Sequence record: OR192075.1
DNA: 64,000 bases
Reading direction: 5' to 3' (one strand)
From: Escherichia phage MIZ6
Positions 1 to 60,107 of the stretch are shown here, piece after piece. Both the position numbers and the translations under genes were made by a program. The stretch's first letter is position 1. Every line of letters begins with the position of its first letter. The notes below the pieces were generated by a model. It had not been told where the DNA came from, searched no databases, and saw only the letters and a list, made by a program, of their open reading frames with translations.

Positions 1-1163
1 TTGTTAATGCCCGTGATGGCGTTATTATGGCGTATATTGACACCACAACGGGCGAATTTAAGTCTAAAGGGACTATCGAAGGGACAACCATTAAAGACAC
101 AGGTCAACGCGTCTATAGCCCTGTTAATAAACCAACGAATAATGATTTAGATTTGGTGTCTCGTCGCGGTGATACCCTCACAGGAACATATAATTTAAAC
201 ACCGTCACTGTTAAACTATCGGTTGATTCGAAATTAATTGCAAGGGAACGTGATTTAATTAATTTTGATGCGACTAAGATCTATTATGGTAACGTTCTTG
301 ATACGTTGGTCTTCCGAAGTAAAGATGAGCCTACCATTTTTGTTAATGGCAAAGAAGGTCGTTTTTATCACACCAACAATAAACCAACTAAAGCCGATGT
401 TGGACTAGGCAATGTCACCAATGATGCACAGGTTAAACGTGCTGGTGATATTATGGAAGGTAACTTGCAAGCGCCTAGAATGTTGGCGACAAACGATCCT
501 GCTGGTCCGAATGAATTGGTTCGTTTGAGCTACTTTGAGAGAAAATCAATGGTAGCAAATCCAACCATCATAGGAAACGTTGATTGGAACACTCTTATTA
601 ATCGCGGTATCTATCGTGTGGAAAATGCTGGGTCGGGTACTAATAAACCGTCTGATAGCTATTATAACGGCGTTTTGATGGTATATCGCCCAGAAGATGC
701 GGTCGGTACTCGTCGAATTGTTCAGGTGTATTATCCTGAATCTATTGACCATCCGATGTGCTGGCGTTCTTGTTCTAATGAATCATGGACTGCATGGAAC
801 TATGTAGATCACCGTAAATTAGCCGATATTCGCTATGTTAACGTAACTGGCGATACCATGACAGGACCGTTAACTGTTCCGGCTGCAAACGGTGTTAGAA
901 CGGCTAAAACTAACTATAACGGGGATAACTGTTATGCGGCGTTAAGCGGTGCTGATGGTACTGCTATGATTCACCGCATTAGTGATATTAAAGGGACCGA
1001 AAAGCTGGGGATCACCCACGACTCAAAGGTCGTGTTTTTCCGTTCTAGAAACAATACTCAAACCGTGGACCGCTATCAGCTTTATCATGAAGGTAATAAA
1101 CCTACTCCGGCTGATGTTGGAGCGGTTCCACTTAATGCGGTGATTGATTTTGGTACTTTCTAA
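1..1163 (+). CDS. Tail fiber protein, C-terminal portion (5' end lies upstream of window); possibly gp36-like long tail fiber subunit
   Basis: Track ORF 27..1163 stays open in frame back to base 3 and has no SD before ATG-27; tail-fiber motifs GDTMTG and HEGNKPTxADVG shared with the next gene. Confidence 0.55.
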   Translation, partial: VNARDGVIMAYIDTTTGEFKSKGTIEGTTIKDTGQRVYSPVNKPTNNDLDLVSRRGDTLTGTYNLNTVTVKLSVDSKLIARERDLINFDATKIYYGNVLDTLVFRSKDEPTIFVNGKEGRFYHTNNKPTKADVGLGNVTNDAQVKRAGDIMEGNLQAPRMLATNDPAGPNELVRLSYFERKSMVANPTIIGNVDWNTLINRGIYRVENAGSGTNKPSDSYYNGVLMVYRPEDAVGTRRIVQVYYPESIDHPMCWRSCSNESWTAWNYVDHRKLADIRYVNVTGDTMTGPLTVPAANGVRTAKTNYNGDNCYAALSGADGTAMIHRISDIKGTEKLGITHDSKVVFFRSRNNTQTVDRYQLYHEGNKPTPADVGAVPLNAVIDFGTF

Positions 1164-1233: not shown

Positions 1234-3990
1234 ATGGCAGATTTAAGCAGAATCCAATTTAAACGCACTAGCACTAAAGGTCGTAAACCTGATGCTAGTG
1301 CGATGAATCCGGGGGAATTGGCAATCAACCTTGCGGATCAATATCTTCTTACTAAAAATGATTCCGGTGCTATTATCAATTTAAGTTGTCCTCCGGTGTA
1401 TGACCGACAAGTTAGATTCGCTGGTAAGGTTGACGGTGACAACTATATTTTAGGTAAAACTGCTAACTATATGGATGATTCAACCGCTCGCGACCTTAAC
1501 AAATTTGGTGCGTTTCGAACGAATAATGCTGATGGATGGTCTAACTTGATTCTGAACATTCCTCATTCTAGCGGTAAAGCACACGGTCGCGGGTTTGAAT
1601 TTCAATATGGTTCTAGTTCCTCTCAGGTTAAAACCTATGGCTTTGATCAGGATGGTAACAAGAGATTCAGTTACCGCATGTATCATGAAGGCGATAAACC
1701 TACACCATCGGAATTGAACGTTTACAGCAAACAAGAAGTAGATAGAATGTTTGTTAAAAACGTTAAAATGTCTACTCCTCCCGATGTAAGTCGAGGATAT
1801 TTCAAAATTGCTACCGCCATGATCCCCCAGCAAGGAAAAATGGCATTTATTCGTATCTATGGTGGTAATGGATATAACGTTAACTCTATGGATCAAGTTG
1901 ACTTTGTAGAAATCGTGATTCGTGGTGGGAATGGAAATCCTAAAGGTGTTAGTATTGCAGCATATCGACGAAATGCTTTAAATCAGCTTGAAGTATTTGC
2001 TATTAATACATCTGGTGATAACTATGATATCTATGTAAAATATGGTCGATACACCGATAACGTTATTGTAGAATTTGGAAAAACGGTCGATGTTAATTTA
2101 ACTGTTCATGATGTTCCGGCTTTTTCGGAAGCAAAACCTGCTGGTACTACCTTTGAAGGTCGTGTTATTACGATGTTCAACACCGAAAACAAAGCCGGAA
2201 CGTTGATGTTTGATAATAACTCACAAGCAACCTATGATATTGTGAGCCTTAGCAATGCACCTGATAATAGCCGAAATTATCTGCGTAAATTCCGTAGCAA
2301 AGCGAATGAAACAATATGGCATGAAACTGTTCAAGGTGATGTGTATCGTCTGGCTACTGGTTCCACCGACCAAAAAGAAGTATTAAAAATTGTTGGTAGT
2401 GATGGTTTATTTGTCAATAGACTTCATCTGCAAGGCAATAACGCGATTCGTATGTGGCGTCCTACTGGTTGTAGTAACTATTTTGAATATATGGATCAGC
2501 GAGACGGGGCTAATAAACGTCAAGGCTGGTTTGGTTTTGGTTCTACAGAAACCAACGATTTTCAATGGTATAGTGACGAAGGTAAAAACTTTGTTAAGCT
2601 AGAAGCAAGTGGTCAAGTATCTTTAAGCGCAGGTGCAACCAAAATTGTATACACTAATGGTCAATATGTAGCTGCCAATTCTGATGCATACCGTATGATC
2701 TTTGGTAATTATGGTGCATTCTGGCGTAATGACGGCACTAAAGTTTATCTTCTTTCTACTGCCGAAAATGATCGTTTTGGTGGATGGAATAGCTATCGTC
2801 CATTCATTTATGATTTAACTTCCGGTAACGTTCAATTAGGCGGTGATGGTAACGAAGATGCATTAACGTTAGAATGTGCTTCTCGTGCCGCTCGCTTTAG
2901 TAATGACGTTTACATTAAGAAAGGGCTTTTGACTTTCGACGCTGGGCGATTAAATTCCCGCGATTACTTCCGGTTTAACCATTGGGGCGATAGCAATAAC
3001 GGTCGCGATAACATCCTACAGATTGAAGACAGTCAGGGCGCACATTTTATCACTGAACGTGCTATGGGTACTGGTAACATAACAACACGTTTTAGAGGCT
3101 TTGTACGTGTAGAATCTGGTGAAATTGCATTTGATGCTAACCGTGGTTCTTCTTCGCAATTTAGTCTCCATACATGGGGTAATGAATCACGAAAACAAGT
3201 TTTTGAATGTAAGGATGCAACAAGTTATCATTGGTATACCGAACGTACTGCGGGTGGCACTGGTCCGGTTAAGTTCTCTGTTGCAGGTTCTTTCTATAGC
3301 GGAAGCGATGTTAACGTAGGCGGTAGTCTGAATTTTGGTAATGCTATTCAACGCGGCGCTAGCGTCATTACTATAGATTCTGGTTCTGCGGGTGCTGGTT
3401 CTTTTGCATCTCAACATGATGATAACGTCAAAGCACCTATTTTCCAACGTTTAGACCGTGGTGATGCGTCTATATATGTTCCTTTGATTAAGCAACGTTA
3501 TGTTCAAGGTGCAGTAACATTCTCGTTGGGTATGCTTCTTAACGAAGGTTCATGGCGAGTTCATGTTAAAGGTTCTGGTGTTGAATCTAATACTACCTTC
3601 TATAAAAACGGCGATTTCCAAGCTGGACGCAATGGTAACTTTAACGACGTTTACATTCGCTCTGACTCTCGCCTGAAAATCAACAAGGAAGAGTATAAAG
3701 AGAATGCTACCGATAAAGTAAATAATCTTAAGGTATATTCCTACGATAAGGTTAAATCTTTAACCGACCGTACTGTAATCGCTCATGAAGTTGGTATTAT
3801 TGCTCAGGATCTTGAAAAAGAATTGCCGGAAGCAGTAACAACTTCTAACATCGGCGACCCAGATAACCCAGAAGAGATCTTAACAATTTCTAACTCTGCT
3901 GTCAACGCTCTTTTAATTAAGGCGTTTCAGGAAATGAGCGAAGAATTGAAAGCCGTTAAAGCTGAACTAGCGGAACTTAAAAAGAATTAA
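1234..3990 (+). CDS. 37: Long tail fiber distal subunit gp37-like, with C-terminal intramolecular chaperone (peptidase S74-like) domain
   Basis: N-terminus MADLSRIQFKRTSTKGRKPDASAMNPGELAINL matches T4 gp37 N-terminus; conserved AGAGSFASQ..YVPLIKQRYVQG block; C-terminal ~130 aa resemble the autoproteolytic chaperone domain of T5 pb1 / endosialidase. Confidence 0.8.
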   Translation: MADLSRIQFKRTSTKGRKPDASAMNPGELAINLADQYLLTKNDSGAIINLSCPPVYDRQVRFAGKVDGDNYILGKTANYMDDSTARDLNKFGAFRTNNADGWSNLILNIPHSSGKAHGRGFEFQYGSSSSQVKTYGFDQDGNKRFSYRMYHEGDKPTPSELNVYSKQEVDRMFVKNVKMSTPPDVSRGYFKIATAMIPQQGKMAFIRIYGGNGYNVNSMDQVDFVEIVIRGGNGNPKGVSIAAYRRNALNQLEVFAINTSGDNYDIYVKYGRYTDNVIVEFGKTVDVNLTVHDVPAFSEAKPAGTTFEGRVITMFNTENKAGTLMFDNNSQATYDIVSLSNAPDNSRNYLRKFRSKANETIWHETVQGDVYRLATGSTDQKEVLKIVGSDGLFVNRLHLQGNNAIRMWRPTGCSNYFEYMDQRDGANKRQGWFGFGSTETNDFQWYSDEGKNFVKLEASGQVSLSAGATKIVYTNGQYVAANSDAYRMIFGNYGAFWRNDGTKVYLLSTAENDRFGGWNSYRPFIYDLTSGNVQLGGDGNEDALTLECASRAARFSNDVYIKKGLLTFDAGRLNSRDYFRFNHWGDSNNGRDNILQIEDSQGAHFITERAMGTGNITTRFRGFVRVESGEIAFDANRGSSSQFSLHTWGNESRKQVFECKDATSYHWYTERTAGGTGPVKFSVAGSFYSGSDVNVGGSLNFGNAIQRGASVITIDSGSAGAGSFASQHDDNVKAPIFQRLDRGDASIYVPLIKQRYVQGAVTFSLGMLLNEGSWRVHVKGSGVESNTTFYKNGDFQAGRNGNFNDVYIRSDSRLKINKEEYKENATDKVNNLKVYSYDKVKSLTDRTVIAHEVGIIAQDLEKELPEAVTTSNIGDPDNPEEILTISNSAVNALLIKAFQEMSEELKAVKAELAELKKN

Positions 3991-4030: not shown

Positions 4031-4270
4031 ATGGTCTATAATATCGTCATTGGCGCTTTGTCTAATTTCGGAATGAAATTATTGTCAAAGTTAATTAGTG
4101 AAAAGATGCTCACTAAAATTTTCTTCTATTGCGCTCGTCGTCTTGCGGCTTATACCAATACGCCAATTGATGATCGTTTTGTGGAAGAACTTTATAAGGA
4201 GTTTAATAAAGATCAGTCAGAAGATAGTAACGAGCAAGATAAATCTAGTGATAGTCAACTACCTAAATAA
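4031..4270 (+). CDS. Hypothetical small protein (79 aa), hydrophobic N-terminus, acidic C-terminus
   Basis: Strong SD AAGGAG 8 nt before ATG; sits between gp37 and holin. Confidence 0.4.
   Translation: MVYNIVIGALSNFGMKLLSKLISEKMLTKIFFYCARRLAAYTNTPIDDRFVEELYKEFNKDQSEDSNEQDKSSDSQLPK
4263..4270 (+). promoter_or_regulatory. Candidate late promoter element (CTAAATAA) upstream of holin
   Basis: Octamer 34 nt upstream of holin ATG, same spacing as upstream of gp37. Confidence 0.25.
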
Positions 4271-59321: not shown

Positions 59322-60107
59322 TTACACGCGAGCACCGTAGATCGTGCCTACTTTATCCCAGCGAGGGGCATTACCAGTAACAGCTTTACCCGCAGCACCA
59401 CCAGAGTGAACAGTTCCTCCAGTACCACCTTTAATATATGAAGATTTGCCAGCAGCTCCCAAATCTCCACCATCTCCTCCATAATGAACCCCAGAAACAG
59501 TGCCTTTACCTGGGGCAGAAATTGTACCAGCAGATGCTGCCGCTGCGCCGCCTCCTGCCGCACCCGCAGCACCAAATGGACGGCCTCCACCGCCGCCAAA
59601 TTTCATATCCATTTGAGGGAAAGGATTGTATCTAGCACCAGCACCGCCACCACCGCCACCACCAATAATACCATTATTGTTTATTCTTAAACGAGTTCCA
59701 ATTCCGTTATTTATTGCATTTCCTCCTGCTCCACCAGCAGAGTTACTTCCGCCATTTCCTCCACGACCTAATACATGAACACCAGAGTTAATAATGAGTG
59801 TTACATATTCGTTTGTCAGTGAGCTAGGGAAATCAAGACAAGGAACGCCAGTAGATTGGGAAACAATATTACCCGTGATAGTAATTACTACCGGAGTAGA
59901 TCCTTGTGCTTTCATCCAGTTAATAAGAGTGTCTTTATTGTAAGAGTTACTAGCACCAATGCTATAATGAATCTCTTTAGAGCGTCCGACCATTGCCGAC
60001 ATATACGCCGGACGACCTAAGCGAACAGCTTGCATTGCGGCGCTCATCCACCGTTGACCAGTCTCGGACACAGCAGATGATCCTACCCATCCAGAAGATA
60101 TTGCCAT
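59322..60107 (-). CDS. 38: gp38-type tail fiber adhesin homolog (glycine-rich)
   Basis: N-terminus SGWVGSSAVSETGQRWM and NEYV..I...GV...GRGGNGGSNS plus poly-Gly motifs and C-terminal VTGNAPRW..G.IYG.RV match T2/S16-type gp38 as I recall it; SD GAGGAA. Confidence 0.7.
   Translation of the reverse strand: MAISSGWVGSSAVSETGQRWMSAAMQAVRLGRPAYMSAMVGRSKEIHYSIGASNSYNKDTLINWMKAQGSTPVVITITGNIVSQSTGVPCLDFPSSLTNEYVTLIINSGVHVLGRGGNGGSNSAGGAGGNAINNGIGTRLRINNNGIIGGGGGGGAGARYNPFPQMDMKFGGGGGRPFGAAGAAGGGAAAASAGTISAPGKGTVSGVHYGGDGGDLGAAGKSSYIKGGTGGTVHSGGAAGKAVTGNAPRWDKVGTIYGARV

Follow-up and report, generated by a model that had tools for sequence, protein, structure and literature searches.

Which protein forms the receptor-binding end of the distal long tail fiber of Escherichia phage MIZ6? 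The distal subunit gp37 of this phage begins much like its T4 counterpart and ends in a different way, and a gene for a gp38-type protein is found at a distance on the opposite strand. The first-pass annotation had proposed that the receptor-binding tip of gp37 was replaced by a self-cleaving chaperone domain and that, together with an orphan gp38 gene, this amounted to an unusual arrangement for receptor recognition. We analyzed the locus within a stretch of 64,000 nucleotides of the MIZ6 genome (OR192075.1), referred to as the window in the following.

MIZ6 is a Krischvirus and thus one of the RB49-like "pseudo-T-even" phages. The fiber genes and their neighbors are arranged in the order g34, g35, g36, g37, a 79-aa ORF and the holin gene t, followed by early genes on the minus strand, and the order around g37 is equal in RB49 and kaaroe on the one side and MIZ6 and MIZ3 on the other. 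At the DNA level the gp37 ORF is 100% identical to CDS0099 of phage MIZ3, annotated as "long tail fiber protein distal subunit" (OR167179.1, where the counterpart of the window spans positions 64001-128000), and it shares 80-92% identity across most of its length with kaaroe, GoldenSnicker, FL38, Whisky, JSE, RB49 and phi1. A literature search on the phage name MIZ3 gave no match. Two Pfam domains are found in gp37, namely Gp34_trimer (aa 416-526) and Peptidase_S74. The preceding gp36 (window 1-1163, plus strand, cut by the window start) has 496 aa in MIZ3, RB49 and kaaroe, which is more than twice the size of T6 gp36 (~217 aa). This size, in combination with the Gp34_trimer domain inside gp37, suggests that the distal half-fiber is split between gp36 and gp37 in a manner unlike that of T4 and T6. 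The coordinates of the features discussed here are given in Table 1.

Table 1. Features of the distal long tail fiber system in the MIZ6 window.
Feature	Position	Strand	Remarks
Gene 37, long tail fiber distal subunit	1234..3990	+	ORF; 918 aa, 102.0 kDa precursor; PHROG 1699, E 4e-148
Distal end of mature gp37, aa 719-809	3388..3660	+	T4-like block aa 719-800, then conserved last residues GRNGNFNDVYIR; putative gp38 docking end
C-terminal intramolecular chaperone (IMC), Peptidase_S74, aa 810-918	3661..3987	+	PF13884; 109 aa, 12.2 kDa; release predicted
SDxRxK autocleavage/catalytic motif, Ser810-Asp-Ser-Arg-Leu-Lys815	3661..3678	+	predicted scissile bond between Arg809 and Ser810; dyad Ser810/Lys815
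79-aa ORF, RB49 Dc5/ORF251w homologue	4031..4270	+	PHROG 402; between g37 and holin t, the slot of g38 in T2/T6
Gene 38, T2/S16-type long-tail-fiber adhesin	59322..60107	-	261 aa; Pfam GP38 + Gp38_N; 6F45_D

The C-terminus of gp37 is formed by a Peptidase_S74 intramolecular chaperone domain (IMC), and the interval in which such a domain had been suspected, 3600-3990 (aa 789-918), brackets it. The profile search that had been suggested as a check returned PF13884 ("chaperone of endosialidase") at aa 810-869 (nt 3661-3840; E 2.1e-11), with the full profile covered (1-58) and a score of 44.3 bits against a Pfam gathering cut-off of 22 bits. The C-terminal helix continues past the Pfam match to aa 918 (nt 3987), and the domain thereby occupies the very end of a fiber protein with Gp34_trimer and fiber homology upstream. 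Its catalytic Ser-Lys dyad could likewise be located: the two residues, Ser810 and Lys815, are five residues apart (S-D-x-R-x-K) and sit at the N-terminal edge of the IMC.

To place these residues in context, the last 218 residues of gp37 were aligned with 23 database homologues, all of which carry PF13884. Ser810, Asp811, Leu814 and Lys815 are invariant in 24 homologues, and the motif SDxRLK is shared without change by the MIZ6-type gp37, RB49, kaaroe, T6, Ox2 and the L-shaped tail fiber of a T5-like Klebsiella phage. The IMC region also aligns by sequence with the S16 gp37 construct 6F45_A (E 5.8e-5), including the SDRRIK site of S16. A tblastn search with the same 218 residues recovered the module in 1295 phage records, among them many Straboviridae distal fiber genes, T5-like L-shaped fibers and streptococcal PblB proteins.

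The alignment was further used to build an AlphaFold model of the monomer. For aa 811-918, the mean pLDDT of 10-residue blocks ranges from 75 to 93, and a long terminal helix is modeled at query residues 187-217. The tip before the cleavage site (query residues 1-105) is of low confidence, and its pLDDT drops below 50 over query residues 1-71. A Foldseek search identified the ICA of MyRF (7DC3) as the best PDB match (E 3e-5, TM 0.66 on the target), with the endosialidase intramolecular chaperone (3GW6) and the GA-1 neck-appendage chaperone (3GUD) among the other matches. These three structures are members of the IMC fold family, in which a helix/beta-hairpin core precedes a long C-terminal helix, and the C-terminus of gp37 is predicted to share their fold.

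Upstream of the IMC, gp37 retains the T4-like portions that had been noted before. More specifically, the N-terminus (aa 1-74) is 46% identical to T4 gp37, and the block AGAGSFASQ...YVPLIKQRYVQG (aa 719-759, running on to 800) shares 51% identity with T4 gp37 684-774. The absence of the His-rich T4 tip was also borne out, with no iron-binding HxH motif in MIZ6 gp37 as compared to eight in T4 gp37. We rejected a T4-type receptor-binding needle tip on gp37, given that neither Collar nor Phage_fiber was matched in the Pfam scan and that HxH motifs are absent.

By analogy with S16 (PMC7917993), we infer that aa 719-809 constitute the end on which gp38 docks. Over the 100 aa preceding the cleavage site, identity amounts to only 34% with RB49 and 32% with T6, and conservation is confined to the final ~12 residues; with about one third identity, the docking surface is therefore not obviously conserved beyond this short stretch. 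The residues just before the site, NDVYIR, match the context found in T6, Ox2 and fPS. Within the genus, the gp37 shaft at aa ~545-809 (window 2860-3660) is mosaic: relative to RB49, the IMC is 93% identical, against the low value for the 100 aa in front of it. RB49 gp37 is 61 aa longer than MIZ6 gp37 and 56% identical overall, conservation being good over the N-terminal ~540 aa, and the shaft block of MIZ6 is closer to T4 gp37 684-774. The shaft differences from RB49 are ordinary tail-fiber mosaicism.

In T2 and T6, the gene for the gp38 adhesin directly follows g37. At the MIZ6 locus no adhesin gene is located directly 3' of g37, and the 79-aa ORF is found there instead. We considered this ORF as a candidate for gp38 and rejected it, as it encodes a Dc5/PHROG 402 protein without significant Pfam match. 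It has a hydrophobic N-terminus and is conserved in RB49 and kaaroe. The adhesin gene itself lies 56 kb from g37 on the opposite strand, surrounded by early genes. Its product matches GP38 (PF05268, E 1e-70) and, at aa 1-40, the gp37-attachment domain Gp38_N (PF21721, E 3.9e-18), and it aligns over its full length with 6F45_D, the receptor recognition protein of S16 (E 8.6e-49). Furthermore, Trp7 and Trp20 of gp38 align with tryptophans of the S16 protein (MAISSGWVGSS...GQRW vs MAVQGPWVGSS...GQNW). Its sequence agrees completely (100% identity) with gp38 of kaaroe, W115 and FL37, and Tequatrovirus adhesins such as those of RB18 and Shfl2 are ~90% identical. The label "orphan" thus holds for the position of the gene, but not for its product, a full T2/S16-type adhesin with its docking domain. 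Identical gp38 proteins also occur in phages with only a partial match to g37, such as W115 (69% query cover, 81% identity). With one gp38 paired to very different distal shafts, docking may require no more of mature gp37 than its final ~12 residues.

The displaced position of g38 has been known as a special trait of RB49-type phages and concerns gene order, not the protein system; for RB49 itself, the distant position was described in reports of 2002 and 2011 (PMC3157838). On the minus strand, g38 is flanked by hairpin terminators, one just upstream at 60143-60128 and one just downstream at 59315-59294, and a perfect sigma-70 promoter (TTGACA-16-TATAAT) follows the downstream hairpin at 59277-59250. 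Such a promoter/stem-loop arrangement (PeSL), as present 3' of g38, has been described for RB49 and phi1, where it is a hot spot of recombination. Upstream of g38, the closest promoter-like sequence is of the early type (60453-60425, minus strand). A search for the canonical T4-type late promoter TATAAATA found none in the vicinity of g38; the 64-kb window contains a single exact match, located 2.6 kb upstream at 62694-62687, and sites with one mismatch to TATAAATA are rarer in the window than expected by chance. The missing late promoter counts against the fiber assignment proposed below, as does the low identity in front of the cleavage site.

We consider it highly probable that the two genes together specify a standard distal long tail fiber of the T2/T6/S16 type in its RB49 (Krischvirus) version. 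The T2/S16-type system is called complete here because both of its parts are present, a gp37 with a predicted cleavable IMC and a separate monomeric adhesin. In this system, gp37 would be made as a 918-aa precursor, whose IMC (Ser810-Asn918) would nucleate trimerization and fiber folding from the C-terminal end. After the trimer has folded, each chain would cut itself between Arg809 and Ser810 by means of the Ser810/Lys815 dyad, releasing the 12.2-kDa chaperone and leaving a mature chain of 809 aa and 89.8 kDa. The exposed end of the gp37 trimer would then be capped by one gp38 molecule through its N-terminal attachment domain, and the glycine-rich (polyglycine) C-terminal domain of gp38 would bind the host receptor. 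In Krischvirus, g38 is simply found at another site of the genome.

We infer the cleavage, the exact scissile bond and the docking of gp38 from homologues and the literature. According to work ascribed to Drexler in 1986, T2 gp37 is reportedly processed at its C-terminus, and Dunne in 2018 is said to have found that autocleavage of the S16 IMC exposes the gp38 docking site (6F45). Published descriptions agree that the S16 IMC, comprising the last 113 residues, is autocleaved after trimerization, by which the gp38 docking surface is exposed (PMC7917993), and that gp37 of T2 and T6 undergoes C-terminal cleavage before being capped by gp38 (PMC3157838). Autoproteolytic release has been stated in the literature for RB49 gp37 as well. 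The cleavage context in MIZ6, DVYIR^SDSRLKI, was aligned with the S16 site DLNVS^SDRRIKK and with the site inferred for the fPS phages, DVYIR^SDGRLKI (PMC7917993).

A different assignment of roles would make the cleaved end of gp37 itself the receptor binder, with the IMC taking the place of the receptor-binding tip and the distant gp38 standing outside the fiber as an orphan, either a relic or a protein of other use. That g38 is separated from g37 by 56 kb, is found on the other strand in the midst of early genes and has no canonical late promoter nearby is in line with such a scenario, as are the homology of the gp37 C-terminus to a T5-like fiber and the established knowledge that T5 pb1 and many other IMC-ended fibers bind their receptors with the tip exposed by cleavage. 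However, gp38 is intact and keeps its Gp38_N attachment domain, and its complete conservation in several Krischviruses and ~90% identity to functional Tequatrovirus adhesins are difficult to reconcile with a protein outside the fiber. Host-range mutations of RB49 moreover map to gp38 (E230K), and the gp38 type predicts the receptor in Krischvirus, where Gp38 variants decide between the use of Tsx and OmpA (PMC12032242). We hence regard a receptor-binding gp37 end with an orphaned gp38 as very unlikely. Likewise very unlikely, in our assessment, is a variant in which the S74 domain acts as a folding and trimerization module only and is kept uncleaved on the virion fiber. Some S74-like domains with mutated dyads are generally known to stay attached, but both the Ser-Lys dyad and the full SDxRLK motif are preserved here without exception, the T2 and S16 homologues are experimentally processed, and a retained IMC would block the very end on which gp38 docks.

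The regulatory setting of g38, an insulated cassette between its two hairpins, is the one feature that published work does not account for, and it allows for a further idea, which concerns the gene rather than the composition of the fiber. Here, g38 would be expressed by unusual means, be it early or middle transcription or a late promoter of non-canonical type, and/or serve as a mobile host-range cassette moving between genomes by PeSL recombination, combined with a docking mode that needs only the last ~12 residues of gp37. We view this combination as rather doubtful.

With the standard fiber as the preferred reading, the proposed replacement of the tip by the chaperone domain was right with respect to the identity of the domain, to its predicted self-cleavage and to a mature tip unlike that of T4, but not with respect to its role, given that the IMC would be a discarded folding module and the gp38 adhesin would bind the receptor. 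The suggestion of an unusual arrangement did not hold, since gp37 of T6, Ox2 and RB49 shares the S74 domain and it is T4 that represents the exception. An IMC-ended gp37 with a gp38 cap is what most T4-type phages normally have, and this design has been published. All of its elements are already known, from the S74 domain that closes gp37 and its cleavage prior to capping with gp38 to the distant g38 of RB49-type phages and the small ORF that fills the vacant slot, and the combination of a gp37 IMC with a gp38 adhesin is the textbook T2-type long tail fiber, stated explicitly for RB49-like phages; as a discovery it matters little. The practical value lies in annotation: the host-range determinant to be recorded is gp38 at 59322..60107 and not the end of gp37, and for the mature fiber protein a mass of ~90 kDa (aa 1-809) is predicted in place of 102 kDa.

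Among the known systems, the RB49-type phages RB49, phi1, JSE, kaaroe, Cognac49 and Whisky49 resemble MIZ6 in having g34-g35-g36-g37 followed by Dc5 and t, with g38 at a similarly distant locus. T2, T6 and Ox2 possess a gp38 of the same GP38 plus Gp38_N architecture, but encode it directly 3' of g37, whereas g38 of MIZ6 is 56 kb off. In the same Pfam scan, gp37 of T6, Ox2 and RB49 was also found to end in Peptidase_S74, in contrast to T4 gp37; the hexapeptide SDSRLK of T6 is identical to that of MIZ6, and the IMC of T6 is 62% identical. The gp37-gp38 pair of S16 (6F45) includes a full-length homologue of gp38, but its gp37 shows low identity outside the IMC, and its cleavage site reads VS^SD compared to IR^SD in MIZ6.

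A related combination of domains is present in an Escherichia coli assembly (GCA_031535085.1, contig ABMKHH010000064.1; L009, 2542-6912), where a 1140-aa fiber protein with Gp34_trimer and S74 is followed by a 303-aa protein (P0011), in which Gp38_N and the first half of the GP38 adhesin are joined to an S74 domain of its own. Among the genes called in this phage region is one for an HK97-type capsid (Phage_capsid) that also has a Peptidase_S78 protease domain. The 303-aa protein may be a second fiber segment that docks like gp38 and matures like gp37, or it may be a recombinant.

Endosialidase, T5 pb1, GA-1 gp12 (3GW6, 3GUD) and the MyRF ICA (7DC3) share the Pfam family, the Ser-Lys motif and the predicted fold with gp37. 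In these proteins, however, enzymatic activity or receptor binding resides in the matured trimer, whereas the end of MIZ6 gp37 is predicted to act as the platform on which a monomeric adhesin is mounted as a separate protein. T4 gp37, finally, occupies the same position in the fiber and is homologous to MIZ6 gp37 in the N-terminal 74 aa and the block at 719-800, but carries the Collar and Phage_fiber domains and the eight HxH motifs that MIZ6 gp37 lacks, and T4 gp38, which lacks the GP38 adhesin domain, is an assembly chaperone unrelated to the MIZ6 protein.
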